Source: a virus
Lineage: Duplodnaviria > Caudoviricetes
Length of the DNA stretch: 24,574 nt
Direction: 5' to 3' (one strand)
Virus record (IMG/VR): IMGVR_UViG_3300044568_001207
Coordinates: 1-24,574 of that record
Shown piece after piece: positions 1 through 17,125 of the stretch (position 1 is the stretch's first letter; the number at the start of each line of letters is the position of its first letter). Under the pieces are notes generated by a model. That model worked only from the letters and a program-made list of their open reading frames with translations. It was not told the origin of the DNA and did not search any database. The position numbers and the translations under genes are program-made.

Positions 1-493
1 CTACCAAGGTGGTTTAGACTTTACAGTCACTAAAACATCCAAAGGTGGTTATGCTGACTACTCAACTTCAAAATGGTCACGCAAAGAATCTGCATTAACA
101 GCAGAAGAAGCTGCGGCAATTGAAACTCATGGCTTATACAACTTGAAAGATTTCTTGCCAAAGAAACCTAGCGAAGTTGAACTTAAAGTTATGAAAGAAA
201 TGTTTGAAGCTTCAGTAGATGGTCAAGCATATGACGCAGATCGTTGGGGTAATTATTACAAACCAAGAGGCGTAACAATCGTCTCAGCTGAATCAGCTAC
301 ACCTGTAGCACAAACAGCAACACCAGCAGTGGCAGATGAAGAATTTGAAACTGCACCGGCTGTGGCTGCTCCAGTAGTTACAGAGGCTGCACCGGCGGCT
401 CCTACAGCACCAGTTGCAACACCTCCAGCAGGTGGAACAGCACGTGCTGAAGACATCTTAGCGATGATTCGTAATAGACAAAAAACTTCTTAA
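1..493 (+). CDS. T4 gp32-like single-stranded DNA-binding protein, C-terminal part (5'-truncated by the window edge)
   Basis: Frame 2 is open from base 2 (YQGGLDFTVTKTSKGGYADYSTSKWSRKES...) through the listed 143..493 ORF. The G-x-DF...KGGYADYSTS motif resembles gp32-family SSBs. It has an Ala/Pro linker tail and lies directly upstream of uvsX. Confidence 0.8.
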   Translation, partial: YQGGLDFTVTKTSKGGYADYSTSKWSRKESALTAEEAAAIETHGLYNLKDFLPKKPSEVELKVMKEMFEASVDGQAYDADRWGNYYKPRGVTIVSAESATPVAQTATPAVADEEFETAPAVAAPVVTEAAPAAPTAPVATPPAGGTARAEDILAMIRNRQKTS

Positions 494-503
494 TAAGTAA
501 AGG

Positions 504-537
504 TAACGGGTAGAGCTTAGGTTCTACCCGGTTATTT
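504..537 (+). terminator. Stem-loop after SSB (possible weak intrinsic terminator or RNA processing/stability hairpin)
   Basis: CGGGTAGAGC-TTAG-GTTCTACCCG (507-530), followed by GTTATTT. The U-tract is poor. Confidence 0.5.
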
Positions 538-552
538 CAACGAGGACACATT

Positions 553-1632
553 ATGGCAAAACCATTCGATATATCAAAATTTAGAAAGTCGATTACCAAA
601 AGCATTGATGGCTTGGGTATTGGCTTTAACGATCCAACAGATTGGATCAGCACTGGCAACTACACATTAAACTACTTACTATCCGGTAACTTTGAAAGAG
701 GTATTCCAATGGGTAAAGTAACTGTATTTGCAGGAGAATCAGGCGCAGGTAAATCATTTATCTGTTCAGGTAATATTGTTAGACACGCACAAGAACAAGG
801 CATTTATGTTATCTTGATCGATACAGAAAACGCACTTGATGAAGCTTGGTTACACGCACTTGGTGTAGACACCACAGAAGACAAATTACTGAAACTTAAC
901 ATGGCTATGATCGATGATGTAGCCAAAGTTATCAGTGACTTTGTTAAAGAGTATCGCACCTTACCAGAAGAAGACCGTCCAAAGGTCCTATTCGTATTAG
1001 ATTCATTAGGTATGATGTTAACTCCAACAGACGTTAACCAGTTTGAAGCAGGTGAAATGAAGGGCGATATGGGTCGTAAACCTAAAGCACTTACAGCACT
1101 TGTACGTAACTGCGTAAACATGTTTGGTACACTGAACTTAGGATTGGTTTGTACGAATCATACTTATGCGAGCCAGGATATGTTTGATCCAGATGATAAG
1201 ATTAGTGGTGGTCAAGGCTTTATCTATGCGTCAAGTATCGTTGTAGCTATGCGCAAACTTAAACTTAAAACAGATGCAGACGGCAACAAGACTACAACAG
1301 TTAATGGTATACGTGCGGCATGTAAGATTATGAAAACACGTTACGCTAAACCGTTTGAATCAGTCCAAGTAGAGATTCCATATGAAACAGGTATGAGTCC
1401 TTACTCAGGATTAACAGACATGTTAGAAGCTAAAAACTTGCTTAAGAAAGAAGGCAATAGTTTAGTTTATACATTTGCTGATAAAACAACTATTAAACAA
1501 TTCCGCAAAGCCTGGGAACGCAATGAAGATGGTTGCTTAGATAAGGTTATGAAAGAACTTAGTTCTAATGTAAATCTGCTAAGTACTGAATCAAAAGTAG
1601 TCGAAGAAACAGAAGAGGAGACAGCAGAATGA
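553..1632 (+). CDS. uvsX: UvsX / RecA-like recombinase
   Basis: Walker A GESGAGKS, IDTENA, Walker B-like VLFVLDSLG, NHTY and SGGQG motifs of the RecA/UvsX family. GAGGA SD at 542-546. Confidence 0.93.
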   Translation: MAKPFDISKFRKSITKSIDGLGIGFNDPTDWISTGNYTLNYLLSGNFERGIPMGKVTVFAGESGAGKSFICSGNIVRHAQEQGIYVILIDTENALDEAWLHALGVDTTEDKLLKLNMAMIDDVAKVISDFVKEYRTLPEEDRPKVLFVLDSLGMMLTPTDVNQFEAGEMKGDMGRKPKALTALVRNCVNMFGTLNLGLVCTNHTYASQDMFDPDDKISGGQGFIYASSIVVAMRKLKLKTDADGNKTTTVNGIRAACKIMKTRYAKPFESVQVEIPYETGMSPYSGLTDMLEAKNLLKKEGNSLVYTFADKTTIKQFRKAWERNEDGCLDKVMKELSSNVNLLSTESKVVEETEEETAE

Positions 1633-1874
1633 GCATTGAATTAGATATCGCCAGTGAAGTTTGGCTTACTTGTAAAGAGTATATCAATCCTAAGGATCGT
1701 CAAGCGGCCGCAGATCACGTGATCAGTGTTGCTGCAGATCACAACATCACTGAAAGTGAGCTTAAAACCTTTGGTGGTACTGATGCTTATCTAGGTCGTG
1801 CTGTTAAGGAGTATCTTGGCGATGAAGAAGATCAAGCGATCGCTGATGAAGAAGATGACGGTGACGACTATTAA
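1629..1874 (+). CDS. Small acidic hypothetical protein (81 aa)
   Basis: ATGA overlap with the uvsX stop and TAATG overlap with the next start. GAGGAG SD upstream. Acidic C-terminus DEEDDGDDY. Confidence 0.8.
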   Translation: MSIELDIASEVWLTCKEYINPKDRQAAADHVISVAADHNITESELKTFGGTDAYLGRAVKEYLGDEEDQAIADEEDDGDDY

Positions 1875-2329
1875 TGTGGTATAGTCGTGTAGTTGCAAGT
1901 TTGGGCAGTATTCCTGATTTCATAGATCACTATGAAAAAGAACTGGATAGTGCTAAAACAGAAGTTGGGGTCTATGGTAACATAGAAAAGAATCTTGCTG
2001 GCCTGCCCGGTATTACAGAACGACGCTTTAATCAACTACAAGAGATTGAAGCGGTTCTCAACTATCTAAATATTCAACTACGCAAGATACGCACTAAACA
2101 CTTTAAGAAATACTTAGAAAACTATCAACGTGCCCTAACAAGTCGTGATGTAGAAAAATACGTAGACGGTGAAGATGAAGTCATTGACTTTGAAACAATT
2201 ATCAACGAAGTAGCCTTACTGCGTAATCGTTGGTTGGGTATCATGAAAGGCTTAGAATCTAAGAACTTCATGTTAGGACATGTAACACGCTTACGTACAG
2301 CAGGCATGGAGGACGCATCAATTGGCTAG
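1874..2329 (+). CDS. uvsY: UvsY-like recombination mediator protein
   Basis: 151-aa helical protein with KKYLENY...RDVEKYVDGEDE and GIMKGLESKNFML segments typical of UvsY-like proteins. It is clustered with SSB and uvsX. Confidence 0.75.
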   Translation: MWYSRVVASLGSIPDFIDHYEKELDSAKTEVGVYGNIEKNLAGLPGITERRFNQLQEIEAVLNYLNIQLRKIRTKHFKKYLENYQRALTSRDVEKYVDGEDEVIDFETIINEVALLRNRWLGIMKGLESKNFMLGHVTRLRTAGMEDASIG

Positions 2330-3227
2330 TCACTCAGAATCAGTATTAGGACAATTAAGAGAATATGATAGTTTCTTAGAAAGTCTACGCACAATCGCAG
2401 ACATGGGCTGCGGTACTGGCCAAGATATGACGTGGTGGGCCACTCTAGCAAGTAGAGATGATAATCCGGAACCATATAACTACAAATGTTTTGCTGTAGA
2501 CATTGACGGGTCAAAACTAGCACAAGTTCCGGACCTTATTAATATCACTAAACTTGAACGTGACTTTACCAAACCTAATATCCTTCCTACAAATATAGAT
2601 TTAATGTTTGCTCATGACTGTTTACATTACAGTATAAATCCATTGGAAACATTAAAGTTTTGGAACGATCAGATGTCAGTGAATGGCATGCTGGTATTGA
2701 GCGTACAACAAAACAGTGGGGTTCAATATAACAAATACTACAGTAGAAGTTATAGCGGAAGTTTCTTTGACTACACACCCGTTAACTTAATTTACATGCT
2801 AGCAGTCAATGGATTTGACTGTAATGATGCATACCTATTGAAGAAATATAACGATCCATGGATTGACATTGCTGTTTATAAGTCTAATATTGCTCCAATG
2901 GACCCTGCTAAAACCAAATGGGAACATCTAATAGACACAGGATTATTAAATCACAGTGTGGTTAATTCTATATTAAAGAATGGACATGTACGCCAAGAAG
3001 AAATTGTATACCCTTGGTTAGATAAAGAAAACTATTTTGTTGATTGGATTAGACAACAAACAGAAATTCCAATGGAAGCTGGCGACCCTATTATAGATGG
3101 TGTTTTTAATAAATCTGAAGCGAGTACAACGACCACTGTTGAACAAGCAACAGCAAAAATCAAAGGTACTGATCTATTAACTCCAACCGGAGTTATGCGA
3201 GTTCCTAAAGGTAGGTATGTTAAATAG
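2322..3227 (+). CDS. Class I SAM-dependent methyltransferase, substrate unknown
   Basis: Motif I IADMGCGTG, then AVDID and the downstream GMLVL strand. No DPPY/NPPY or PC DNA-methyltransferase catalytic motif is visible. GGAGG SD upstream. Confidence 0.8.
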   Translation: MASHSESVLGQLREYDSFLESLRTIADMGCGTGQDMTWWATLASRDDNPEPYNYKCFAVDIDGSKLAQVPDLINITKLERDFTKPNILPTNIDLMFAHDCLHYSINPLETLKFWNDQMSVNGMLVLSVQQNSGVQYNKYYSRSYSGSFFDYTPVNLIYMLAVNGFDCNDAYLLKKYNDPWIDIAVYKSNIAPMDPAKTKWEHLIDTGLLNHSVVNSILKNGHVRQEEIVYPWLDKENYFVDWIRQQTEIPMEAGDPIIDGVFNKSEASTTTTVEQATAKIKGTDLLTPTGVMRVPKGRYVK

Positions 3228-3651
3228 AGTGGTTCTGGTAACAGGTGGATTTGATCCACTACACTCAGGACACATAGAATACTTCCGTGCCGCCAGGCAG
3301 TTAGGAACTATGCTGGTAGTTGGAGTTAACAGTGATGCATGGTTAATTCGCAAAAAAGGGCAGGCATTCATGCCCATCAAAGATCGTGTAACAATCATTG
3401 AAAGTCTTCGTATGGTAGATCATTGTATATTATTTGACGACAATAATGATTCAGCGGTAGAAGCCATACGTAATGTTAAAATGATGTATCCTAACAGTAA
3501 AATAGTCTTTGCTAATGGCGGCGATCGTACAGCGACAAATATTCCAGAAATGTCAGAACCCAACGTAGAATTTGTATTTGGTGTAGGTGGCGATTTTAAG
3601 CTAAATTCCAGCAGTGAATTATTGAAACGCTGGAAATCTACACAAAGATAA
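3217..3651 (+). CDS. HxGH-family cytidylyl/adenylyltransferase (RfaE domain II / TagD-like)
   Basis: VTGGFDPLHSGH, VGVNSD, RKKG, ANGGDR and C-terminal SSS motifs. Confidence 0.88.
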   Translation: MLNRVVLVTGGFDPLHSGHIEYFRAARQLGTMLVVGVNSDAWLIRKKGQAFMPIKDRVTIIESLRMVDHCILFDDNNDSAVEAIRNVKMMYPNSKIVFANGGDRTATNIPEMSEPNVEFVFGVGGDFKLNSSSELLKRWKSTQR

Positions 3652-3654
3652 ATA
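3648..3654 (+). promoter_or_regulatory. Putative T4-type late promoter (ATAAATA)
   Basis: TAAATA at 3649-3654, 7 nt before ATG 3662, with no SD in between. It resembles the T4 late consensus TATAAATA and the motif recurs before other genes in the window. Confidence 0.55.
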
Positions 3655-3661
3655 CTACATC

Positions 3662-5053
3662 ATGCGTGCAAATGAATTCCTAATAGAAGCCGGCAACCTT
3701 GCTACAGGCGAGATTAAAAAATATCAAAGTAGAATCGCTGCCTTTATACATAAAGTACAGGCAGGAAGTCCCTTTGTAACAACAGATGGTAGAGATTTTG
3801 TTGTTGACCGTAAACAACTTCCAGAATTAAAAAAGTTCTTATTAGATCCTGATACTAAAGGTCAACTGTTGGTGCGTAGTACAGACGGTAAAGAACTAAT
3901 TAGCACTAGTAAACTAGTAAAAACCGGCGAATTTGGGGGACAAAGTAGCCCTACCCAAGCACAAGGACAAAACGTTGATGTAAGCCAAACCGCAGGTAAA
4001 GAAGGCTTACCAGTTAAACCACCACAGGTATTCCAAACTACAGATATTAAAGACATTAACCTAGCCACAGCTAAAGACCTACAACGTGCTGGCGCATTTA
4101 AGGTAAAAGATTTGTATAACAAAATATCTACCAGTGAACAGTTAAACGCATTAGGCACATATGGTCAAGCGATCATCAGTTGTGCTAAACAAATTAATTC
4201 AGGTAAAGATCCTAAAGTTCCAGAAGGCCTCACTAGCCCGCAGATGCGTGCTCTAGTAGACTATGCTGGGGAGTATTTAGGTATCCTTGCTATGTACAAA
4301 GGAACAGCAGATTTTCCTAAACGCGAAGCATTCCTAAAATTCATCGGTAATGATCTAGGTACAAGCACCTTATACTTTCCAAGTAAAAGTAACACTCCAT
4401 TGGCAGACAGCTTTGCTATCCAAGACAGTGAAACGGGTCATACTATATACATGAGTAGCAAAGGATCAGCAGGCGGCGCAGCTCCAGCAATCAGCGGACT
4501 TAAAATCCCAGAAGAGCTAAAAAAACGTCGTCAATACAAAGATGCTGTAGAATTTATCTTGCTATGTCAAAACACAGGTGCTATCGAACAACCATTCTAT
4601 TTAATGAATTATATAGCACAAAAATATCCAAATGCTATCGACGAAAAATTTATAAAAATGTTACCATGGGATATTACGGCTACAGTAAATGCAGTGAATG
4701 CCAGCCGCAGGGAACGCAAACCATTACCAGCCAAGATGCAGAAATTTGTTAATGGCTTTGTATTCAAACGCAAACTGGCAGACGAAACAACACCAGGCGG
4801 TGTATTACATTACGTTACGATTAAAGAAGTTATGCGGATTGTCAATACCGGTGCTATTAAAAATTTCCAAGCCTGCGTATTAGAAGTCCTGAGTGAAAAC
4901 TTTGTCCAAATATATACACAAGGTACTAAGCAAGGCACACTTGAAACCTACGTATTATGGCCAGCTAAAGTTGATGGCGTAGTAAGCGTAGAAAGTAAAG
5001 GTAGTGCCAGTAACCCAGTTAAAGGAACGGTAAGTTTCCGCGTCAGTAAATAG
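3662..5053 (+). CDS. Hypothetical 463-aa protein; possible virion-internal protein with a PD-(D/E)xK-like nuclease domain
   Basis: Long ORF. The N-terminus MRANEFLIEA resembles the T4 internal-protein capsid-targeting peptide. FPSKSNTPLADS...IYMSSKG resembles a restriction-endonuclease-like catalytic motif. The ORF is solid; the function is tentative. Confidence 0.6.
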   Translation: MRANEFLIEAGNLATGEIKKYQSRIAAFIHKVQAGSPFVTTDGRDFVVDRKQLPELKKFLLDPDTKGQLLVRSTDGKELISTSKLVKTGEFGGQSSPTQAQGQNVDVSQTAGKEGLPVKPPQVFQTTDIKDINLATAKDLQRAGAFKVKDLYNKISTSEQLNALGTYGQAIISCAKQINSGKDPKVPEGLTSPQMRALVDYAGEYLGILAMYKGTADFPKREAFLKFIGNDLGTSTLYFPSKSNTPLADSFAIQDSETGHTIYMSSKGSAGGAAPAISGLKIPEELKKRRQYKDAVEFILLCQNTGAIEQPFYLMNYIAQKYPNAIDEKFIKMLPWDITATVNAVNASRRERKPLPAKMQKFVNGFVFKRKLADETTPGGVLHYVTIKEVMRIVNTGAIKNFQACVLEVLSENFVQIYTQGTKQGTLETYVLWPAKVDGVVSVESKGSASNPVKGTVSFRVSK

Positions 5054-5082
5054 TTGACATCTTTCCAAAAGTCTGTTATAAT
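5054..5082 (+). promoter_or_regulatory. Consensus sigma70 promoter driving the tRNA/ncRNA operon
   Basis: TTGACA (5054-5059), 17-nt spacer, TATAAT (5077-5082), with extended -10 TG at 5074-5075. Confidence 0.9.
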
Positions 5083-5101
5083 TAATCATAAGTAAAAAAT
5101 T

Positions 5102-5186
5102 GCCGGCTTGCGCAGAGTGGGATTGCACCTGACTTGTAATCAGGCTTCGTAAGATAGAGAGTGTTCGATTCACTCAGCCGGCACCA
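5102..5186 (+). tRNA. tRNA-Thr(UGU), atypical (long variable arm)
   Basis: Acceptor GCCGGCT/AGCCGGC, anticodon arm CCTGA-CTTGTAA-TCAGG (TGT 5135-5137), T arm GAGTG-TTCGATT-CACTC, encoded A-CCA end. 14-nt variable region. Confidence 0.85.
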
Positions 5187-5192
5187 AATATT

Positions 5193-5828
5193 ATGAAAAT
5201 ATGTACAAAATGCGGTAAAGAATTTGATGCCTATAGCAAATGGGGTGAAAAGAAATTTTGCTCTAGGAGTTGTGGAAACAGTAGAACGTTTAGTAAAGAA
5301 TCACGAGAAAAAACCAGCGCAACTTTGCAGAAGTATAACGACAGCCTAACACCACAAGAAAAACGAGACAAGTTTGAAGTAGCTAAAAGCAAATATGATT
5401 ATGATGATATGCAACGTCGAGCTAAGGAAACTAAGATAAAGAAATCCTGGGATAGACCATATGAAGAAATGAGCCGAGAGGCTCTAAAGAAAAGGATATT
5501 GCACGAAAGTAATTACAAATGTGAAATGTGTGGTATAAGTGATTGGCAAGACAAACCTATAACTTTAGAAATAGATCACATAGATGGTGATCCATTTAAT
5601 AATAATAGAAAAAATTTAAGAATACTTTGCCCTAATTGCCACAGTCAAACGCACACATATAGAGCTAAGAATATTAAGATCAATAGAAGAGAATTAAATT
5701 TAGAGTTGTTAGAAGAAATGTTAAGGATACATAAGTATGCAACGCCTGCGTTACGTGCTATGGGATTAGCAAACAGCCCAAAACGTATAAAAGCCGCAAA
5801 TGAGATATTAAGTAGACTTAACTTTTAA
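5193..5828 (+). CDS. Free-standing HNH (homing-type) endonuclease
   Basis: CEMCG...LEIDHIDGDPFNNNRKNLRILCPNCHSQT HNH core. N-terminal CTKC...FCSRSC Zn module followed by a NUMOD3-like FSKESREKTS segment. Confidence 0.9.
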   Translation: MKICTKCGKEFDAYSKWGEKKFCSRSCGNSRTFSKESREKTSATLQKYNDSLTPQEKRDKFEVAKSKYDYDDMQRRAKETKIKKSWDRPYEEMSREALKKRILHESNYKCEMCGISDWQDKPITLEIDHIDGDPFNNNRKNLRILCPNCHSQTHTYRAKNIKINRRELNLELLEEMLRIHKYATPALRAMGLANSPKRIKAANEILSRLNF

Positions 5829-5872
5829 GAGTCGCTGACATTCCGGAATGTCCCCGTATAGAGTAAGCGGGA

Positions 5873-5995
5873 TTATTAGTATAGGGTTCTCAGCCAATCA
5901 ATATTATGATATATGCGGACTAATTCTAGATAGCTAGCTTCCGATGGGTCATATGCTACGGTTGCAACTGTAGCACGAGAACTCTATACTAATGA
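5873..5995 (+). ncRNA. Unannotated structured RNA (three-way junction, 6S-like architecture)
   Basis: 19-bp closing stem 5873-5891/5977-5995, unpaired AGCCAATCAATAT (5892-5904), imperfect hairpin 5905-5953 and 9-bp hairpin 5954-5975. The stems use G-U pairs. It lies within a tRNA operon with no ORF over it. Confidence 0.6.
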
Positions 5996-5999
5996 ACAA

Positions 6000-6087
6000 G
6001 GAAACGTGGCCGAGTGGTCGAAGGCACTTCACTGCTAACGAAGCAAACCGAAAGGTTTCGAGAGTTCGAATCTCTCCGTTTCCGCCA
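6000..6087 (+). tRNA. tRNA-Ser(GCU)
   Basis: Acceptor GGAAACG/CGTTTCC, anticodon GCT 6034-6036, long variable arm AAACC-GAAA-GGTTT, TTCGAAT T loop, G73, CCA. Confidence 0.95.
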
Positions 6088-6097
6088 TTTTTAAGTT

Positions 6098-6172
6098 GCG
6101 CCTTTAGCTTAATGGTAAAGCGTCCGACTCATAATCGGAGGAGTGATAGTTCAATTCTATCAAGGCGCACCA
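6098..6172 (+). tRNA. tRNA with CAU anticodon (probably Ile2/lysidine type; elongator Met not excluded)
   Basis: Acceptor GCGCCTT/AAGGCGC; the G1-C72 pair argues against initiator. TCCGA-CTCATAA-TCGGA arm (CAT 6130-6132), TTCAATT T loop, A-CCA. The CGACTCATAATCG core resembles enterobacterial tRNA-Ile2. Confidence 0.85.
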
Positions 6173-6174
6173 GG

Positions 6175-6249
6175 TACGGTGTAGTGTTAATGGTAGCACA
6201 CGGGTTTCCAAAACCCTTGGTCGCGGTTCGAGTCCGTGCATCGTAGCCA
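6175..6249 (+). tRNA. tRNA-Trp(CCA)
   Basis: Acceptor TACGGTG/CATCGTA, anticodon CCA 6208-6210, T arm CGCGG-TTCGAGT-CCGTG, G73, CCA. Confidence 0.92.
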
Positions 6250-6256
6250 GAACAGT

Positions 6257-6331
6257 CCGGTGTTAGTTTAATGGATAAAACAGGGGATTTCTACTCCCTA
6301 GATAGAGGTTCGATTCCTTTACGCCGGACCA
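6257..6331 (+). tRNA. tRNA-Arg(UCU)
   Basis: Acceptor CCGGTGT/ACGCCGG, D loop with GGATA (A20 Arg identity element), anticodon TCT 6290-6292, T arm AGAGG-TTCGATT-CCTTT, A-CCA. Confidence 0.92.
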
Positions 6332-6360
6332 GTAAGAATTAATAACAATAGGAATAATAA

Positions 6361-6534
6361 ATGTCAAAAGACACCAAACAACAAGAGTTAGAAGAATCAC
6401 AGGCAATAGATCTTGCTATGAAAAAGTTTTTAGCAAATGGTGGCGTCGTACAACAAATTGCCCGAGGAGTCAGCGGTGTAGAAGAAGGAAGTCCTCAGGC
6501 TGCCTGGGGACGACCTAAGAAAAAAGAAAAATAA
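6361..6534 (+). CDS. 57-aa SutA-like RNA-polymerase-binding protein (not in the ORF track)
   Basis: MSKDTKQQELEESQAIDLAMKKFLANGGVVQQIARGVSGVEEGSPQAAWGRPKKKEK, with AGGA SD near 6350. AMKKFLANGGVVQQI matches my recollection of the Pseudomonas SutA core (AMEEFLSRGGKVQEI). Confidence 0.7.
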   Translation: MSKDTKQQELEESQAIDLAMKKFLANGGVVQQIARGVSGVEEGSPQAAWGRPKKKEK

Positions 6535-6543
6535 TAGATTACT

Positions 6544-6619
6544 GCTCCCATCGTCTAGAGGCCTAGGACACCCGCCTTTCACGCAGGTAACACGAGTTCG
6601 AATCTCGTTGGGAGTACCA
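6544..6619 (+). tRNA. tRNA-Glu(UUC)
   Basis: Acceptor GCTCCCA/TGGGAGT, Glu-type D arm TCGTCTAGAGGCCTAGGAC, anticodon TTC 6578-6580, T arm ACGAG-TTCGAAT-CTCGT, A-CCA. Confidence 0.95.
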
Positions 6620-6621
6620 AT

Positions 6622-6629
6622 TATAAATA
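6622..6629 (+). promoter_or_regulatory. Putative T4-type late promoter TATAAATA
   Basis: Exact T4 late consensus, 5 nt upstream of ATG 6635. Confidence 0.6.
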
Positions 6630-6634
6630 TGAAT

Positions 6635-7447
6635 ATGCCAAGCCTAGATACCAGAGTAAAACTATTACAAGCATTTGTCTATGTGGGATTCGTCTACACA
6701 CTAGCATATCAGTTTGATCTAACCTTATTTTTAATCAGCTTCTTTATCATTGGTTGGTTAATGACTCTGGTAGGGGTTAGTTGTGGCTTACACAAATACA
6801 GTGCGCACGGTAACTTCAAAGAAAAGCATGTAGCATTTAAGATACTGATGTTGTTCTATGCTACAGTTATGAGTCTAGGCAGTAGTATTGCTTGGTCTAG
6901 CACACATCGTAAACATCATCAAACCAGCGATAAATTAGATGATCCACACAGTCCAAATACCAGTGGTGGTGGGTTCTGGCGCAGTATCAAGTTGTGGTTC
7001 TATTACTTCCCAACATATCATGTTAATCCACGTATAGTTAAAGACCTTAGTGTAGATCCTATACATAAATTTTTCCATAAGAATTACTTCAAAATTGTGG
7101 CCATTTACATTGTTTTATTGTCATTATTTGGCATAAAAGCGGTATGTTATTTGTACTTTGTGCCAGTGGTATATGGATTCCAAGCAACTAGTTATATCAC
7201 AGTTTTGGCACACAATACTTGGTTGGCTAAATTTGGCTATCGTAATTTCAACACTGATGATAAAAGTTTCAACAGCAAGGTAGCGGCAATATTCTGTCCA
7301 TGTGATGGTAATCATAACAATCATCATGGTTGTGCAGGTGCAGCAACTAACAGTTTGAAACCGGGTGATTGGGATACTGGTTATTGGTTTATTCGACTAA
7401 TTGGGCGTGTGCCTGATCAATCAGTGTTTAAGAAATTTAATAACTAA
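6635..7447 (+). CDS. Membrane fatty-acid (delta-9 acyl-CoA/acyl-lipid type) desaturase 1
   Basis: Three His boxes HKYSAH, HRKHH and HNNHH, plus DDPHSP and hydrophobic TM segments. Start moved from 6608 (inside tRNA-Glu) to ATG 6635; ATG 6629 is also possible. Confidence 0.88.
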   Translation: MPSLDTRVKLLQAFVYVGFVYTLAYQFDLTLFLISFFIIGWLMTLVGVSCGLHKYSAHGNFKEKHVAFKILMLFYATVMSLGSSIAWSSTHRKHHQTSDKLDDPHSPNTSGGGFWRSIKLWFYYFPTYHVNPRIVKDLSVDPIHKFFHKNYFKIVAIYIVLLSLFGIKAVCYLYFVPVVYGFQATSYITVLAHNTWLAKFGYRNFNTDDKSFNSKVAAIFCPCDGNHNNHHGCAGAATNSLKPGDWDTGYWFIRLIGRVPDQSVFKKFNN

Positions 7448-8191
7448 TCCTGTAGGATCAAATTTAGTTGCATTGAAGTCACACTGACCTGGATGTGCGT
7501 GATGGCTGTTATGTAATCCTTCCCCAGCAAATAATACTGTAAAAAGTCTACTATCCCAACTACGATCGTTGGTAACAGGATCTATTGGCCCGCTGTGTGC
7601 TATTACAGTTACCCAACTCATACCTAACACCATATAAGTTATTGGTAAGGCAACAAAATAAACAAAATACACAGGACCGCCTAGAAGTAAAACTAGTGCA
7701 GGATATACTGCCCATATCTTCCAATAGTGGTCATGACTTAATCTCATGTCCTCATCTCTGAGAATGTCTACGATCATCTTAGGGCTGGCACTCATCTTAG
7801 GGAAATGATACCAAAACAATTTGAAATTGTGCCAGAAATTATCAGTCAGTTTGAACGGATCCTGATCAGTGTCGCTGTGTACGTGATGTTGTCGATGTGC
7901 AGAGGCAAATCCAGGTACACTACCCAAGGTGCATTGTACACCCAACCATAACAATATCCATTTAATCACACGATTTTTTGGTTCAAAGCTACGATGACAA
8001 GTCCAACGGTGTAGACTCACACTACCACCAACGCAGAATAATAACCAACTAACGGCTAGTCCAGAAAATAACAAACTCCAATCAAATGCAACAATTAGTC
8101 CTGCGATAACTAGGGCGTGCATGACAGATTGTACAAATAAAACCTGTGAATATGTTGACGAATTTTTAATAGTTCTGTATAATGTAAGCAT
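7421..8191 (-). CDS. Membrane fatty-acid desaturase 2
   Basis: His boxes HRWTCH, HRQHH and GEGLHNSHH, plus HSDTDQDP and FDPTG. Start placed at ATG 8191 (MLTLYR...) because TAAATA lies 5 nt upstream; the track start at 8218 is possible. Confidence 0.88.
   Translation of the reverse strand: MLTLYRTIKNSSTYSQVLFVQSVMHALVIAGLIVAFDWSLLFSGLAVSWLLFCVGGSVSLHRWTCHRSFEPKNRVIKWILLWLGVQCTLGSVPGFASAHRQHHVHSDTDQDPFKLTDNFWHNFKLFWYHFPKMSASPKMIVDILRDEDMRLSHDHYWKIWAVYPALVLLLGGPVYFVYFVALPITYMVLGMSWVTVIAHSGPIDPVTNDRSWDSRLFTVLFAGEGLHNSHHAHPGQCDFNATKFDPTGLVIKFLKH
8155..8183 (+). promoter_or_regulatory. Sigma70-type promoter for the 8219 gene, lying inside the 5' end of desaturase 2
   Basis: TTGACG (8155-8160), 17-nt spacer, TATAAT (8178-8183). 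Confidence 0.7.
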
Positions 8192-8196
8192 AACTA

Positions 8197-8202
8197 TATT
8201 TA
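8197..8202 (-). promoter_or_regulatory. Putative late promoter core TAAATA for desaturase 2
   Basis: The minus strand reads TAAATA-TAGTT-ATG, the same 5-nt spacing seen at 6635 and 22240. Confidence 0.45.
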
Positions 8203-8218
8203 CGTTAAACGGAACCAT

Positions 8219-8932
8219 ATGTCAAACTTTAATCAACCATTGGTAATAATAGGCGCTAGGCAGACCTGGGACTTTATTACAGATACCTGCGAACAATTAA
8301 ATATTCCGGTATTGGGCTTTGTTGATCAGTATTATGCGGGCCGGGTTGAAGAATTAAACGGACTGGCTTGTTTGGGCAGTGAGTTAGATCTTGTTGATAA
8401 TCCTAAAAAGTTTGGTGATGCCAAGTTTTTTGTAGGCAGTTTCTGGGATGGCAACAGTAACATTGAAACTGATGTACTCAGCGGATATCAACTACGCTTA
8501 AATCGTATTAAATTCATTGATGATAACAAACTTGACTGCTATACACTAATAGATCCTCGCAGTATGTTAAGCAAAAACATAGAAGTTGGTGCTGGGACTT
8601 ATATTGGGCGCCAGGTAAACATACGTGCAGGTGCTAGGATTGGACGACATTGTACAATCACTGACGCCAGTGGATTTGCTAATGATGTTACCCTTGGTGA
8701 CAACTGTGTACTCAGTGCAGGTGTTTATCTAATGAGCAACGTCATACTTGGTAACAATGTTTATGTTGGTACTAGAGCCACAGTGTTTAATGGACACAGT
8801 AGCAAACAGTCACATGTAACCATTGGTGATGATTGCAAAATACATGCTACTGCTACAGTTTCCAAAGACATGGAACCGGGTACCACAGCCGTCTACAACG
8901 GTCGTATTCTAAAAAGAACAGACGTAGAATGA
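8219..8932 (+). CDS. NeuD/PglD-like sugar acetyltransferase (left-handed beta-helix)
   Basis: N-terminal LVIIGA...GFVD domain, TLIDP, and hexapeptide repeats (VGAGTYIG, IGRHCTI, LGDNCVL, LGNNVYVG, IGDDCKI). Confidence 0.85.
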   Translation: MSNFNQPLVIIGARQTWDFITDTCEQLNIPVLGFVDQYYAGRVEELNGLACLGSELDLVDNPKKFGDAKFFVGSFWDGNSNIETDVLSGYQLRLNRIKFIDDNKLDCYTLIDPRSMLSKNIEVGAGTYIGRQVNIRAGARIGRHCTITDASGFANDVTLGDNCVLSAGVYLMSNVILGNNVYVGTRATVFNGHSSKQSHVTIGDDCKIHATATVSKDMEPGTTAVYNGRILKRTDVE

Positions 8933-9729
8933 TCACACGTATCATGTGTGTAGGTCCGGGTAGAATCAATGAAGCCATGGCTACATTAAGTTTTGACCAC
9001 AGGATATTTCCACAGTGCGATCGCACGATTATCATCAGTCCTTATAGCCAACTGCAATTTCAAGAGCTATTCTTAGAATTTAATCTAAACATCACCAACT
9101 TTACTTTTTTAGATGATGAGTACTTTGGTAAACATTATGATCTAAGTCGTTGGTCACATAATAATTGGTATAAACAACAAGCATTCAAACTCTGCGCACT
9201 AGATCATTTTAGCAGTGAATATTTTTTAATACAAGACTGTGATTTAATTTTACTTAAATCTTATAGCATGATAGTCAGTGGAGAATTAAACTTCAAAGCT
9301 GAAGATCTTTGGAATGAGTATCAGCATTTATATGGCACTATGATTGAAAAAATCCTAGGTATATCACGCAAACACTCTGTTAGTCTAGTCAATGAATTAA
9401 TGCCCTATACCAAACAAGATTGGCTTGAGTTAAAATCATATATAGAACAACGACACGGCTGTAATTTTTTAGATGCCATAGCAAATACACAAGAATTTGA
9501 TAGTACAAGTTGGTTCAGTGAGTATGAATTATTAGGTATTTGGAAAACAAATCAAACGGGTTGGCAGTATTTTAGTAATCCTAGCCAACCAAAAGTTGAA
9601 ACCTGGGAGGAGTTTTTTGCGATAGATTGGTCGCAGTATCATTCGGTGAAATTCCATGCTCCACCGTTAAAAAATATGGATATAAATCAGGCAAAACACG
9701 TGATAAAATTTTTACGTGATGTTGCATAA
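8929..9729 (+). CDS. Putative GT-A-fold glycosyl/phosphotransferase-like protein (DUF6492-like)
   Basis: WYKQQAFKL, FLIQDCD (DxD) and FSEYELLG motifs. Start moved to ATG 8929 (ATGA overlap with the upstream stop). Confidence 0.6.
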   Translation: MITRIMCVGPGRINEAMATLSFDHRIFPQCDRTIIISPYSQLQFQELFLEFNLNITNFTFLDDEYFGKHYDLSRWSHNNWYKQQAFKLCALDHFSSEYFLIQDCDLILLKSYSMIVSGELNFKAEDLWNEYQHLYGTMIEKILGISRKHSVSLVNELMPYTKQDWLELKSYIEQRHGCNFLDAIANTQEFDSTSWFSEYELLGIWKTNQTGWQYFSNPSQPKVETWEEFFAIDWSQYHSVKFHAPPLKNMDINQAKHVIKFLRDVA

Positions 9730-9750
9730 AGTTAAATAGTAGTATATAAT
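9722..9750 (+). promoter_or_regulatory. Sigma70-type promoter with a nested TAAATA late-type core
   Basis: TTGCAT (9722-9727), 17-nt spacer, TATAAT (9745-9750). TAAATA at 9733-9738. GAGG SD before ATG 9771. Confidence 0.65.
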
Positions 9751-9770
9751 TATCTACATAAGAGGCCGCT

Positions 9771-10241
9771 ATGACTGTAGAATTCCGTAATATTGAAGAT
9801 TGTCACGTAGTACATAAACCCTGGGGTATTGAAACTTGGTTACAGGGTGGTTCAGATGTTTATCCATTTGCGCTTAAAGAATTAATACTAAAAGCAGGGT
9901 TCGTAACCAGCTTACAAGTACATCAATTCAAATCAGAAAGTATTCATTTACACATTGGTAATGGTGCATTGGCATATCATCCAGAACCATTTGACTGTGA
10001 ACGTTACCTTGCTGGTGGATACACCACAGAAGAAATTGATAAAATTAAAAGTGAACTAATAATTCAACCCTTAGGCCCAGGTGCTGTATTCCATACACCT
10101 CCAAGAACTATTCATCGTATGATTGCTTATACAGATTTGCATTATACAGAAGCCAGCACTACTCAATTAGATGACGTTATACGTCTTGAAGACTCTGCTA
10201 ACAGAGGACATGGAAGAATCGATGCCGAACACCAACAATAA
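9771..10241 (+). CDS. Cupin protein, mannose-6-phosphate-isomerase-like
   Basis: KPWGxExW, TSLQVHQFKSE, PPRTIHRM and EASTTQLDDVIRLED motifs. Confidence 0.8.
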   Translation: MTVEFRNIEDCHVVHKPWGIETWLQGGSDVYPFALKELILKAGFVTSLQVHQFKSESIHLHIGNGALAYHPEPFDCERYLAGGYTTEEIDKIKSELIIQPLGPGAVFHTPPRTIHRMIAYTDLHYTEASTTQLDDVIRLEDSANRGHGRIDAEHQQ

Positions 10242-11826
10242 ACTCACAGTACTAATTTTAGCTGCGGGCTATGGACGCAGAATGGGTCCATTTAGTCGTA
10301 TGGTACCTAAAGCACTTATTCCCTATGACAACAAACCTTTGATCAGTCACATCATGGAAAAGTTTGATCAAGGCACACGTTTTGTTGTTGCCTGCGGCCA
10401 CATGGGGCAGTATATTAAAGATTACGTAGGGGTAGTACACAGTGATAAAGATGTAGTATTCGTAGACATTCCTAACTATGCAGAAGGTGATACAGGGCCA
10501 GCAACTAGTATACAGGCCTGTGCCAAATACCTACATGGCGGATTTATGTGGTTAGCCTGTGACACATTATTTGACTTTGAATACAGAGATAAACTTGATC
10601 ACAACTGGATTGGAGTACATCCAGTAGACAGTGCCATTGCACAAGATTACTGTTGGATTGAACGTGAAGCTGATAAGATTATCAGTGTAAAGAATAAACT
10701 GCCTAGCAAGACCGCAGTTGATGCGTTTATTGGGTTGATGTATGCCTGCGATGATAGATATCTTAACAATCTAATCGCTCAGAAAGCCAAAGAAACTCCT
10801 GAAGGATTTAGCGGATTAGGGTTGAAAGCACACACAGTGCGCGGTTGGAAAGACTTTGGCACTTATGAAAAATGGGAAGAACTATCAAGTGAATTTACAG
10901 ATGTAAGTTTTCCTAAACCAGATGAACTGTTCTACAACGATAACAAGAAGATTATTAAGTTTTGGACTAATCCTAAGCAGGCAGAAATGCGTGTCAAGCG
11001 TGCTAATTGTAATCCAGAGGCCATGCCCAGTAACGTAGAACAATCAGGCAACTTCTTGATACATGACTTTGCCAAGGGTGATATTGTTTATAATCAATAC
11101 TCACCAGAAGTGTTTGAAAAAATGCTTGAATGGTGTGAGTCAACATTATGGAAACCTGCTCCATCTGAAAACGATGCTGATATCGATCATCTTACTATCT
11201 GTAACAAGTTCTACTACGAAAAGACCATAGAACGTGTAGAAATGTTCCGCGCCAAATATGCTAACTGGTCAGAGCCGTGTGTGGTCAATGGAGTTGAAGT
11301 AGATACTATTGACACATACCTAAGCAAGATTGACTTTACTTGGTTAACAACAGAAACGTCATGGAAGTTCATCCACGGTGACCTACACTTTGACAATACC
11401 ATTTACCAACATGGGCAATACCTAGGTTCATTGGACCTATACCAACAAGACAAAGAAACATATAAAGACAAGTTTACTGCTATCGATTGGCGCACTGACT
11501 TTGGTGGTGCACTATATGGTGACCAGTATTATGATCTAGCTAAGATGCTAGGTGGCTTACATTTGAGTTATAAAGATATCAAACATGAACGTTATAGCTA
11601 TACAGAACGCAACGATTATGCTACACTAGAAATTCCTAGTGTAAAAGATGTACAAGTATATGAAGATATACTACAACGTTGGGTGGTTAAACAAGGATTA
11701 GAATGGAAGAAAGTTAAGACCTTAGTACCAATCATCTACTTGAACATGAGTCCTTTACATGAAGCACCATTTGACAAGTTTTTGATAGCTCTAGCACAGT
11801 TACACTTTAACAAGGTGCTTGGATAA
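10222..11826 (+). CDS. Sugar-phosphate nucleotidyltransferase fused to an APH/choline-kinase-like phosphotransferase
   Basis: N-terminal LILAAGYGRRM...PKALI, ACD and WKDFGT. C-terminal HGDLHFDN, IDWR and GDQYYDLAK. Start taken as ATG 10222 (MPNTNNK). Confidence 0.85.
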   Translation: MPNTNNKLTVLILAAGYGRRMGPFSRMVPKALIPYDNKPLISHIMEKFDQGTRFVVACGHMGQYIKDYVGVVHSDKDVVFVDIPNYAEGDTGPATSIQACAKYLHGGFMWLACDTLFDFEYRDKLDHNWIGVHPVDSAIAQDYCWIEREADKIISVKNKLPSKTAVDAFIGLMYACDDRYLNNLIAQKAKETPEGFSGLGLKAHTVRGWKDFGTYEKWEELSSEFTDVSFPKPDELFYNDNKKIIKFWTNPKQAEMRVKRANCNPEAMPSNVEQSGNFLIHDFAKGDIVYNQYSPEVFEKMLEWCESTLWKPAPSENDADIDHLTICNKFYYEKTIERVEMFRAKYANWSEPCVVNGVEVDTIDTYLSKIDFTWLTTETSWKFIHGDLHFDNTIYQHGQYLGSLDLYQQDKETYKDKFTAIDWRTDFGGALYGDQYYDLAKMLGGLHLSYKDIKHERYSYTERNDYATLEIPSVKDVQVYEDILQRWVVKQGLEWKKVKTLVPIIYLNMSPLHEAPFDKFLIALAQLHFNKVLG

Positions 11827-12296
11827 TGTATAAACGTTTTATCATGGATGTAGATGGTGTATTAAATGATGGCATGCTCTATTGGGGTGTTGATGGGAAA
11901 CCATTCAAGGCCTTTGGTAATTATGACCACGACGGATTAAAACTCCTACGCAGTCATCTAGACATTGAGTTTGTCTCAGCTGACGAAAATGGATTTGGTA
12001 TTACGTATAATCGTATCTATGAACACATGAAGTTTCCTTTGACCATGGTTAAAGAAAAGGATCGCTTAAACTTTGTCTTAGGCAAGGGCAACCCAGCAGA
12101 AACAATTTTCATGGGTGATGGCCCTTTTGATGCTAAGATCATGCCACATGTAGGATTAAGTTTTGCTCCGGCACAGGCCTGGAGAACAGCAAAAGAAGCC
12201 GCAACCTATGTTACAGAACGTGAAGGTGGCAAGGGTGCTGTTATGGACGCTTGTATTATTATTATGGATAAAATGGGAATAGAACATGGATTTTAG
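11826..12296 (+). CDS. HAD-superfamily phosphatase, KdsC/YrbI-like
   Basis: MDVDGVLNDG, DHDGL, FMGDGPFD and GGKGAV motifs. TAATG overlap with the upstream stop. Confidence 0.85.
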   Translation: MYKRFIMDVDGVLNDGMLYWGVDGKPFKAFGNYDHDGLKLLRSHLDIEFVSADENGFGITYNRIYEHMKFPLTMVKEKDRLNFVLGKGNPAETIFMGDGPFDAKIMPHVGLSFAPAQAWRTAKEAATYVTEREGGKGAVMDACIIIMDKMGIEHGF

Positions 12297-13266
12297 ACTA
12301 GGTTTTGGGCCAATGAGCCGCGAAGTTATTAATATATTAGCAAATTATAGCCACGATAAACAACGACCATTGATGATCATTGCTAGTCGCAATCAAGTTG
12401 ATGCTGAAAGTGGTTATGTGATGACCACACCTGAGATTCGTAAACAATTATCCACACTACCTACAGATTATCTTTGGATGTGTCGTGATCATTGTGGTCC
12501 ATATTTCTTAGATGCTGAAAAGAATTTAAGTTTACGTGATGCTGTAGAAGCGACTAAGAAAACTATCGCTTATGACATTGAACAAGGCTTTAACTTGATC
12601 CATATTGATACTAGCCGTGTTGATGATACCTACGGTATTGCAGAAGAGTTATTTAACTTCTGTCTAGAACTTAATCCAAAGATTAACTTTGAATTTGGCA
12701 CTGAAGAAAATGTAGGTGTTGCGGCAGGTGCTGTCAAATATAAAAATGATGTAGCATTTGCTAAAAATATTCATAACATTCAATTTGTTGTAGCACAAAC
12801 AGGTAGCCTATGTTATGAAGATCATCAGGCTGGTGGGTTTGAAACTGAAACAGTTAAAGAACTAGTAGCAGTAGCAAACGCCAATGGTGTTAAGATGAAA
12901 GAACATAATGCCGATTATCTGACCGCAGAACAAATCCAATTGCGTAAAGCTACGGGGGTACATGCTCTTAATATTGCTCCACAACTAGGTGTAGTACAAA
13001 CTAAGTTATTAAGAATGCTATCAGGCAAATACAATCTAACTAAAGAATGGCAAGCGTTTGGTCAAGTTGTTCTTAACAGTGGGCGTTGGAAGAAATGGAC
13101 CAACAGCGATGAAAATGATCAAAAGATCGTTGTTGCTGGACATTACTGCTTTACCAGTCCTGAATATCGTACATTGATCAATGCTATCAACGAAACAGAT
13201 TGGAACGCGGCATTAGTTGACGAAATGTACGCAGTCTTGGATAACTACACAGAAAATCTACTATAA
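12286..13266 (+). CDS. GatZ/KbaZ-like TIM-barrel ketose-phosphate aldolase/epimerase
   Basis: IASRNQVD, RDHCGP, IHIDTS, EFGTEE, KEHNADY and NIAPQLG motifs resembling the tagatose-phosphate GatZ/KbaZ family. Confidence 0.72.
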   Translation: MDFRLGFGPMSREVINILANYSHDKQRPLMIIASRNQVDAESGYVMTTPEIRKQLSTLPTDYLWMCRDHCGPYFLDAEKNLSLRDAVEATKKTIAYDIEQGFNLIHIDTSRVDDTYGIAEELFNFCLELNPKINFEFGTEENVGVAAGAVKYKNDVAFAKNIHNIQFVVAQTGSLCYEDHQAGGFETETVKELVAVANANGVKMKEHNADYLTAEQIQLRKATGVHALNIAPQLGVVQTKLLRMLSGKYNLTKEWQAFGQVVLNSGRWKKWTNSDENDQKIVVAGHYCFTSPEYRTLINAINETDWNAALVDEMYAVLDNYTENLL

Positions 13267-14354
13267 TGATTGTTTTATTCAATGTAAAGATCACTGATGT
13301 CCGTATGGGTTTTCCTTATACCCGCGGCGTCTGGATGCCAAATCCTGAACGCTTTGATATCTTTAAGTATTGCCTCGCCAGTACAGCAGTGTTAGAACCC
13401 TTGGTCAGTAAGTTTGTATTTTGTATCACGCTAGCCCCTGAGCTAGCACACAGACAAGCTGAACTAGATGAATACATACATGGACTGTTTCCTTCCGACA
13501 AATTAGATCTAACCTGGGCACGCAATGACTACGGTAGCGATTGGCGCAAGACCTGTGATCGTGTACTAATAGACCCCAATGAAATAGTTTGGTTGGCCTG
13601 TAATGATGATCACATCTTTATCGATAATAGTATTGACATGGTAGCTAGTGCTATCGATACTCTTAAAGCAGACACTGATCCAAATGCTGTGATGTATTAC
13701 AGCCATTGGCCAGAACAAATGCGTGTAAGTCGTCATTTCAAAGGTGAACTTACCTCAGATGGTAACTTTATCAAGTATAATTGGGAAACCTACGATGGCA
13801 TCATGATGCTCAAAGCAGGTAGACTAAGCAAGTATTGGGAACGTGACTACGGCGATACATTAATGTTCAAAGTAGATTATCTAGGTGCGCATCACGGGTA
13901 TGTGTGTCCTGGTCCAATCTATGCTCCAACTAGAGAACTAGTACGACACTATGAAGGTTACAGTCACGTAGGTAGTTATGTAGCAAATATATCTCCCCCG
14001 TTATTTGTACCTCCGGGCTTCTTTGAAGGCGACATGCACATACGTATTGGTTACACTGACCGTCGCAATGACTACACTAATTTTAATCCTATCAGTGAAT
14101 GGCTTTACAATTTTAATCCTGCTGGTACTGACTATCGTTGGTTGTCAGAAGACATTCCGTTATTTTGGCAAGACCGCGTTGAGAATGTAGAATTTGCACC
14201 AGATTTTAACAAAGAACTAATGTACCAAGCACGAGATGCTGCATTTTTAGCCGCAACACGTGTACCAATGAAGTGTTTTGATATCATATTCACACACGAA
14301 AACCCAGCACCAAAAGAGTGGTTTACAAAACATTTATTAACTGCTAAACTGTAA
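13266..14354 (+). CDS. Hypothetical protein, possibly glycosyltransferase-like
   Basis: 362-aa ORF coupled by TAATG. VWLACNDDHIFID resembles a GT-A acidic motif, and it sits in a sugar operon. Confidence 0.6.
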   Translation: MIVLFNVKITDVRMGFPYTRGVWMPNPERFDIFKYCLASTAVLEPLVSKFVFCITLAPELAHRQAELDEYIHGLFPSDKLDLTWARNDYGSDWRKTCDRVLIDPNEIVWLACNDDHIFIDNSIDMVASAIDTLKADTDPNAVMYYSHWPEQMRVSRHFKGELTSDGNFIKYNWETYDGIMMLKAGRLSKYWERDYGDTLMFKVDYLGAHHGYVCPGPIYAPTRELVRHYEGYSHVGSYVANISPPLFVPPGFFEGDMHIRIGYTDRRNDYTNFNPISEWLYNFNPAGTDYRWLSEDIPLFWQDRVENVEFAPDFNKELMYQARDAAFLAATRVPMKCFDIIFTHENPAPKEWFTKHLLTAKL

Positions 14355-14360
14355 GATATT

Positions 14361-14445
14361 GCCCAGGTGGTGGAATTGGTAGACACCCCGGTCTTAGAAG
14401 CCGGTGTCGAAAGGCGTGAGAGTTCGAGTCTCTCCTTGGGCACCA
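14361..14445 (+). tRNA. tRNA-Leu(UAG)
   Basis: Acceptor GCCCAGG/CTTGGGC, D loop GAATTGGTAGA, anticodon TAG 14395-14397, long variable arm, T arm GAGAG-TTCGAGT-CTCTC, A-CCA. Confidence 0.96.
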
Positions 14446-14467
14446 AATAACATAAAAGGAAAATATA

Positions 14468-14677
14468 ATGGCTAAAACTAATGCAAGTTTCAATATGTCA
14501 AGAGTAACAAAATACAAACTAGCTGGTTACACTGATCCAGTAGCACGTAATCTTTATAAAAAGATGATGATTGATGCTGAAGCAGCATTGGTAGCCGCAA
14601 AAAATCGTAAGTTCAGTGATCCAGCACAAGCACAAAAAGGTGGAAACCGTCCACAACCTACAGAACCACAAGCATAA
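14468..14677 (+). CDS. Small basic hypothetical protein (69 aa)
   Basis: AAGGA SD upstream, phage-like codon usage, TAATG coupling to the next gene. Confidence 0.75.
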   Translation: MAKTNASFNMSRVTKYKLAGYTDPVARNLYKKMMIDAEAALVAAKNRKFSDPAQAQKGGNRPQPTEPQA

Positions 14678-15081
14678 TGGAAAAGAAACTTTGGGATAGT
14701 ATAGACGGTAGCATGCTAAAAAGTCTACCCAACGCGGCCAAGGGATATGAACAGCGTATTAGCGTACCTGAGTTTACATTTCTAGGTGGCGCAAATCAAC
14801 CAGACTTTGGTGATGTTACTATTTGGTTTTATGGTAATGCTAAGACTATTGAATTAAAAAGTCTCAAGCAATACCTATTCCAATACCGTGACACTAGATT
14901 AAGTTACGAACGTGCATTGGATGTTATGTATAAAGATCTTAAAGCAGTATACGAACCAGATCGTATTCGTATAGAAATTGAATATCGCCCTAGAGGCGGC
15001 ATTAGCAGTAGAATGACAGTAGACAGTGACTGGGGCCATCTAGGCGGCACTGATCAAATTTGGCAACATCACAAGGACTAA
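14677..15081 (+). CDS. QueF-like tunnel-fold protein lacking the catalytic cysteine
   Basis: [33 protein letters not shown] and RPRGGI align with unimodular QueF (PEFTSLCPxTGQPDFA / ExKSLKLYxxSFRN / HE / PRGGI). Confidence 0.78.
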
Positions 15082-15082
15082 C

Positions 15083-16369: not shown

Positions 16370-16407
16370 TTGATCATTAAGTAATATTTTAACCTACGGG
16401 TTCTGTA

Positions 16408-16462
16408 TATAAATAAAAACGTGGCTAAAAGGCAACAAAATTTTATTCTGTGGCTTTTTAGC
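16408..16462 (+). promoter_or_regulatory. Late promoter TATAAATA followed by a 5'-leader hairpin
   Basis: TATAAATA at 16408-16415. Imperfect inverted repeat GCTAAAAGGCAACA...TGTGGCTTTTTAGC at 16424-16462. GAGGA SD before 16488. Confidence 0.6.
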
Positions 16463-16487
16463 AACAATTTATAACCGAGGAAACACA

Positions 16488-17078: not shown

Positions 17079-17125
17079 TCAAACTAATAACGCCTCTTAA
17101 CAATGCGCAACCTTTATTAGTATCC

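Follow-up and report, generated by a model that had tools for sequence, protein, structure and literature searches.

A tRNA cluster of a GAP32-like jumbo phage holding a new structured RNA family and a SutA-domain protein without the acidic tail

The tRNA cluster described here is a known type of phage operon that holds two apparently new parts: a structured RNA that defines a new family, with strong covariation and an invariant single-stranded loop, and a 57 aa protein with the RNA polymerase (RNAP)-binding domain of SutA and no acidic N-terminal tail. It is reasonable to propose that the tRNAs, a stable RNA released from among them and a protein that probably binds RNAP are all driven by one promoter. 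Our preferred reading, which we hold to be somewhat better than evenly supported, is that a jumbo phage of the GAP32/Atu_ph07 kind has here a tRNA island in the style of T4, likely served by one promoter and carrying two loosely linked host-control modules, a probable RNA decoy and a tail-less SutA that probably dampens RNAP.

The window analysed, meaning the whole stretch of DNA, spans an entire viral record of 24.6 kb. It encodes SSB, UvsX and UvsY, and we assign its phage to the GAP32-like jumbo phages because the window UvsX (RecA) is 64–68 % identical to the counterparts of Phosso, Atu_ph07, CBB and GAP32. Close homologues of the 57 aa protein were found on contigs of 330–339 kb. The AhcY protein of the window has bacterial matches of 62–70 %, mostly to Burkholderiales and other proteobacteria among the best 80 matches listed, a slight indication that the host is a betaproteobacterium. 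Elsewhere in the window, two convergent fatty-acid desaturase genes with overlapping 3′ ends occupy positions 6608–8218, and a metabolic block at 9771–17078 encodes a cupin, a nucleotidyltransferase, a HAD hydrolase, a GatZ-like protein, QueF, AhcY and an outer-membrane beta-barrel. The cluster comprises the following features.

5054–5082, + strand: extended sigma70-type promoter, TTGACA, 17 nt, TG-n-TATAAT, score 12/12
5102–5186, + strand: tRNA-Thr(UGU) with a long variable arm
5193–5828, + strand: free-standing HNH endonuclease, 636 nt ORF, 211 aa, PHROG HNH E 1.5e-30
5829–5872, + strand: short leader with two small hairpins; predicted fold not significant, z −0.65
5873–5995, + strand: new structured RNA; family covariation, no Rfam family
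5873–5891/5977–5995, + strand: closing stem of the RNA
5892–5910, + strand: single-stranded loop of the RNA, with invariant CCAAYCAAU at 5894–5902
5911–5921/5936–5949, + strand: irregular bulged helix of the RNA
5955–5974, + strand: variable hairpin of the RNA
6000–6087, + strand: tRNA-Ser(GCU)
6098–6172, + strand: tRNA with CAU anticodon (Met or Ile2)
6175–6249, + strand: tRNA-Trp(CCA)
6257–6331, + strand: tRNA-Arg(UCU)
6350–6353, + strand: AGGA, ribosome site of the SutA-domain ORF
6361–6534, + strand: 57 aa protein, SutA RNAP-binding domain without acidic N-tail, PF20661 30.8 bits against a cut-off of 29.3
6544–6619, + strand: tRNA-Glu(UUC)
6622–6629, + strand: TATAAATA, T4 late-promoter-like, ahead of the next gene

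The promoter is the sole 12/12 site among 36 found in window positions 1–12000, for which shuffling predicts 37 weaker promoter-like sites, and a near-consensus sigma70 promoter also heads the same cluster in relatives. No terminator-like site was found on the + strand between 5054 and 6619. The initial annotation had reported a perfect extended sigma70 promoter, six tRNAs, a structured RNA and a SutA-like ORF without an obvious terminator, and had placed a possible RNase P cleavage at 6000, five nt after the 3′ end of the RNA. The elements named are present: the six tRNAs lie within 5102–6619, and tRNA-Ser begins at 6000, 4 nt past the last closing-stem pair of the RNA (2 nt in most close relatives). 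That list left out the HNH ORF, which takes up 40 % of the region 5054–6619. Gene content and gene order vary among close relatives, as do the content and order of the tRNAs. The tRNA-Thr(UGU), whose long variable arm is unusual for tRNA-Thr, is conserved at 99–100 % among relatives. The HNH gene occurs among the close relatives only in the identical L001–L003 and in L020, each time directly after tRNA-Thr, and is likely a homing endonuclease riding behind this tRNA. The 3′ part of the leader lies directly behind the promoter in L004 and L013.

The stretch 5825–6000 folds with z = −4.64, a stability equalled by none of 200 shuffles, and the proposed structured RNA is upheld at 5873–5995. Its family was collected by pattern scans over viral and metagenome contigs, and the resulting counts of at least 29 distinct sequences in at least 98 partly redundant loci are lower bounds. 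An alignment of 22 members picked for diversity (95–132 nt in length) was scored against a structure of closing stem, central bulged helix and 3′ hairpin; 91.9 % of cells were paired and 23 of 37 pairs had changed on both sides. Slid controls gave 30–45 % paired, and the observed level was reached in 0 of 500 shuffles of a kind that ignores relatedness. CCAAYCAAU, GCGGA and UUCCGAYGGGUYA are each present in all 22 aligned RNAs, and about 30 bases are invariant. The RNA thus keeps an invariant single strand of 15–19 nt and an invariant bulged helix on a scaffold that varies freely, which suggests a surface for recognition by a protein. Two mutually exclusive helices, one a short RCC/GGU pairing and the other extended and with wobble pairs, each fit 22/22 members, and neither has two-sided changes. 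The UAUGAU/GUCAUA helix of the single-sequence fold was rejected, being missing in distant members.

Rfam scans, one of them on a 140 nt stretch, matched no family to the RNA, and none of the known antitoxin RNAs and ribozymes in Rfam matched. The family model found nothing in 141 bacterial genomes, a set without a positive control, and nothing in five cultured phages save an 18.8-bit match in Paride, which we judged to be chance since the invariant helix is missing there. Blastn with three members returned nothing in cultured phages or E. coli. Retron msr-msd RNAs carry a branching G after the closing repeat and have a linked reverse transcriptase; this identity was rejected, as the G is replaced by A in 3 of 22 members and no reverse transcriptase domain was present in the 24 window ORFs scanned. 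Among the accessible papers surveyed on phage 6S-like RNAs, tmRNA spacers and phage structured RNAs, none was seen to describe the RNA, although RNA catalogues in supplements or further papers could already list the motif.

The RNA is followed by tRNA-Ser(GCU) in all 16 viral contigs with the window-type core. Elsewhere in the family it precedes tRNA-Met or tRNA-Glu or stands directly at a promoter, and in some relatives it sits flush between two tRNAs, against their CCA ends and RNase P sites. In L519 and L559 (2485–2593 in each), it makes up the intervening segment of permuted tmRNA genes of the alpha type, with its stem beginning at the CCA end. In G157, a 160 kb genome with 0 tRNAs, the RNA stands by itself, and in G170, a 236 kb genome with beta-type tmRNAs, 5.6 kb separate it from the tRNA array. 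A sigma70-like site was present within 350 nt upstream of 22 of 29 RNA loci, compared with 5–13 % of random positions in two phage genomes; the loci are related, and the rule took in −35 variants added after inspection. In two of four metatranscriptome runs, contigs span the RNA in relatives at a depth of 3–5, although such contigs cannot show transcription, ends or level.

Several further elements were observed in these records. A second RNA of ~100 nt lies between tRNAs in L005 (3486–3584), L011 (3630–3737), L010, L012 and L027; it has compensated helices and conserved loops, no Rfam match, and single-sequence folds that are not significant. In the 160 kb phage group, a conserved, possibly pseudoknotted element of ~60 nt lies directly 3′ of the RNA (L578, about 2622–2680; also L397, L447, L567, L597, L620 and L634). 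Arrays of 24–26 tRNAs in L045 (15326–20231) and L061 (4466–11789) include several long end-paired spacers that resemble further orphan RNAs. L100 has a tRNA with a CUA anticodon at 3848–3922 (ARAGORN ‘Pyl’), a possible amber suppressor, and G170 has two permuted beta-type tmRNA genes (143567–143966 and 172714–173131; L691 and L692), one with an unusually long predicted tag.

The ORF at 6361–6534, annotated initially as SutA-like, passes the Pfam SutA-RBD model (30.8 versus 29.3 bits). A PDB search with the 57 aa protein gave SutA as its only match, a weak one (E 0.26), and a helix is predicted at residues 3–25. The protein has 131 close homologues, and 23 clusters of homologues were obtained at 50 % identity. 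We compared it with the SutA interface residues described in PMC9300723: M71, F74, L75, G78, G79, V81 and I84 are identical and L67 is replaced by I, and at the polar contacts K60 and R64 the phage protein has E and S. The N-tail has five residues, one of them acidic, compared with 51 residues, 20 of them acidic, in the bacterial L696. According to 10.1101/423384, the acidic N-tail of SutA is required for activation, its deletion inhibited transcription in vitro, and some bacterial SutA homologues likewise lack it. Judged from these residues, the 57 aa protein probably binds the beta protrusion of host RNAP. If it does so, inhibition is the likelier effect, because the RNAP interface is kept and the activating acidic tail is absent. 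The SutA domain was found in 0/5 betaproteobacterial genomes and in 2/151 genomes in the class; the likely host group is thus mostly without SutA, so the host itself probably has none, and its beta protrusion may not fit. Tblastn with the protein gave no match in cultured phages, and a distant form gave two weak matches (E 0.5). Among the accessible papers surveyed on SutA together with phage, none was seen to describe a phage SutA.

The linkage of the RNA and the SutA-domain gene is recurrent and loose, not obligatory. The gene lies close downstream of the RNA in 12 of 16 window-type contigs and is absent in two (L015 and L020); the remaining two end too early. Over the 29 distinct RNAs listed, it is within ~520 nt in 12, among them the truncated L013, and at ~3.6 kb in one. 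It is absent in 10 whose flanks were each read for at least 2.4 kb, and the other six are too short on one side. Seven of 26 RNA-bearing records searched, most of them fragments, contain the domain. Among two near-complete genomes, G157 has both, with the SutA gene 170 nt from the RNA and a promoter between them, and G170 has the RNA only. G157 is a distant phage, its UvsX being 24 % identical to that of the window, and the SutA lineages of the two distant phage groups differ (32 % identical). Adjacency in two distant groups with different SutA lineages hints at a real coupling; a shared preference for early small-gene regions could also explain it. SutA-domain genes close tRNA arrays that have no RNA match in G173–G175, which are fragments, and in the fragment L014 such a gene lies among protein genes. 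The co-occurrence that the initial annotation proposed to check by synteny is seen in 12 of 16 close contigs and in the distant G157, and G170 departs from it. The initial annotation’s idea of a takeover cassette finds partial support: the parts are real and recurrently adjacent, but they are separable, the RNA is not 6S and the protein is tail-less.

Under our preferred reading, the host sigma70 holoenzyme would transcribe the cluster from about 5090, using the promoter at 5054–5082, and RNase P together with 3′ trimming would release the tRNAs. A cut at 6000 would free the 3′ end of the RNA, which we infer from the T4 cluster and from relatives in which the RNA is flush between tRNAs or in a permuted-tmRNA spacer. 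The RNA would then act as a protein-binding decoy, and the tail-less SutA would bind the beta protrusion of host RNAP, dampening host transcription. The HNH gene would travel as a mobile passenger and, like SegB in T4, may help the island to spread. A protein is the likely partner of the RNA, and RNAP is the best-named but a minority candidate for it. That the RNA sequesters a defence protein or an RNA-binding protein of the host is a tentative proposal; a 6S-style decoy of RNAP is doubtful, a base-pairing regulator unlikely, and a catalytic or other role more unlikely still.

We weighed three other explanations for the cluster. It could be a dedicated two-part module for RNAP takeover, in which the RNA is a miniature open-promoter mimic on the sigma70 holoenzyme and the tail-less SutA, on the beta protrusion, helps or complements it. 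In its favour, the RNA topology equals that of canonical 6S as described in PMC8414754, the 5′ loop and the RCCRAY motif resemble those of 6S (15–19 versus 13–16 nt; 22/22 phage RNAs, 14/34 6S RNAs), the RNA occupies an early sigma70 position, and the SutA gene is within about 520 nt for 12 of the 29 RNAs listed, in two phage groups. However, most members have an apical arm (median 39 versus 72) that could not reach far enough to mimic a −35 element, the 6S motifs are found in 0/22 RNAs, there is no 6S cross-match and no conserved −10-like hexamer, G170 lacks the protein, and a promoter separates the two genes in G157. We regard this explanation as unlikely. The boldest reading, in which a 6S-independent mini promoter-mimic RNA and a dominant-negative SutA jointly capture or retune host sigma70 RNAP early in several uncultured freshwater large-phage groups, seems to us a little less likely still.

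The RNA could otherwise be an anti-defence decoy (an antitoxin mimic or nuclease sponge), in which case the island would serve chiefly for counter-defence, and its endonuclease would amplify or spread it. The early expression site, the tRNA context and the invariant A-rich single strand fit this proposal, as do the T6 precedent, in which SegB amplifies tRNA and anti-defence genes (PMC13096335), and an abiF-like RNA motif elsewhere in the window. This motif, at 17084–17121 on the + strand after a porin-like gene, scores 35 bits against a cut-off of 37 and is a possible antitoxin mimic; similar letters occur in L045 at about 17690–17720. Since the RNA matched no known antitoxin RNA and is single copy without repeats, we consider the proposal quite unlikely. 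Finally, the RNA could be a ribozyme or an element for processing the ends of neighbouring tRNAs or tmRNAs, or it could regulate by base pairing. This would suit its roughly 30 invariant bases, its position right against CCA ends and RNase P sites, and its filling of the permuted tmRNA spacer in L519 and L559. The RNA is nevertheless found alone in G157 and 5.6 kb off the array in G170, and no Rfam ribozyme matches it, which makes this the least probable explanation, and an improbable one.

The RNA family is widespread; its fold is well supported, its loop is invariant, and its members are found both in phages with alpha-type and in phages with beta-type tmRNAs. The phage proteins, comprising only the binding domain, are natural versions of the transcription-inhibiting SutA deletion mutant. 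Both parts are testable and apparently undescribed in phages. GAP32-like jumbo phages and T4-like phages must redirect host RNAP, and using a protein on the beta protrusion or a decoy RNA for this purpose would, if true, be new. The cluster also bears on the long-standing question of the role of stable RNAs in phage tRNA clusters.

The closest known system is the tRNA cluster of T4, in which a single transcript of ~1.75 kb bears eight tRNAs, segB and the species I/II RNAs (PMC2330249). Both clusters combine one promoter with an array of tRNAs, a stable RNA and a free-standing endonuclease of the homing type, a likely one in the window, where a single transcript is presumed. The stable RNAs of T4, rnaC and rnaD, are ~120–140 nt long and lie on the same precursor as the tRNAs (PMC2330249); homology to them was ruled out for the window RNA, for which the best overlap was 4.8 bits. 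The endonuclease is GIY-YIG in T4 and HNH in the window, and T4 has no SutA domain, whereas the window cluster has one. The initial annotation knew of no described system with its combination of elements; an operon of tRNAs, endonuclease and stable RNA is described for T4, and the RNA and SutA parts are apparently new.

With 6S RNA (RF00013), initially invoked as a likeness, the window RNA shares a topology of closing stem, large 5′ single strand, bulged apical helix and opposite 3′ hairpin. This agrees with PMC8414754, where canonical 6S has a closing stem below a large bulge on the 5′ side, with a hairpin facing that bulge and an apical stem above it. The RNA is not a member of that family, because its arm is about half as long, the 6S motifs are absent and there is no cross-hit. 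The phage RNAs measure 95–132 nt compared with 160–200 nt for 6S, and their apical arm 35–65 nt (median 39) compared with 65–91 nt (median 72) in 34 proteobacterial 6S RNAs. In 6S, an upstream arm bearing conserved bulges is required as a mimic of the −35 element (PMC9670815); 6S further has conserved proteobacterial motifs and a switchable −10/downstream-helix hairpin, binds the sigma70 holoenzyme and serves as template for product RNA. TGARCC, CYTGARC and GGTTCARG each occur in 0/22 phage RNAs, and in 34, 34 and 27 of the 34 6S RNAs, respectively. The 5′ loop is slightly longer than in the 34 6S RNAs, and the likeness of RCCRAY near the stem was noticed after the fact. The RF00013 model had no match in the window’s own record at E≤10 and matched all five control betaproteobacterial genomes. 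With filters off, the phage RNA model found no 6S match in the 28 of 34 6S loci searched, profile-HMM cross-searches gave no matches, and no −10-like hexamer is conserved on the 3′ strand of the alignment. A promoter-mimic geometry seen in the window alone, with a bubble of 14 nt, a hexamer resembling a −10 element on the 3′ strand and a hairpin in the −35 position, was rejected, as it is not conserved in distant members.

The third comparison is with Pseudomonas aeruginosa SutA (PF20661; PDB 7F0R, 7XL3 and 7XL4). The phage protein shares with it the domain of helix, GG and strand, the hydrophobic interface and an aromatic-Gly motif in the C-tail. P. aeruginosa SutA has 105 aa, with an acidic N-tail and K60/R64, whereas the phage-encoded version has 57 aa and lacks all of these.
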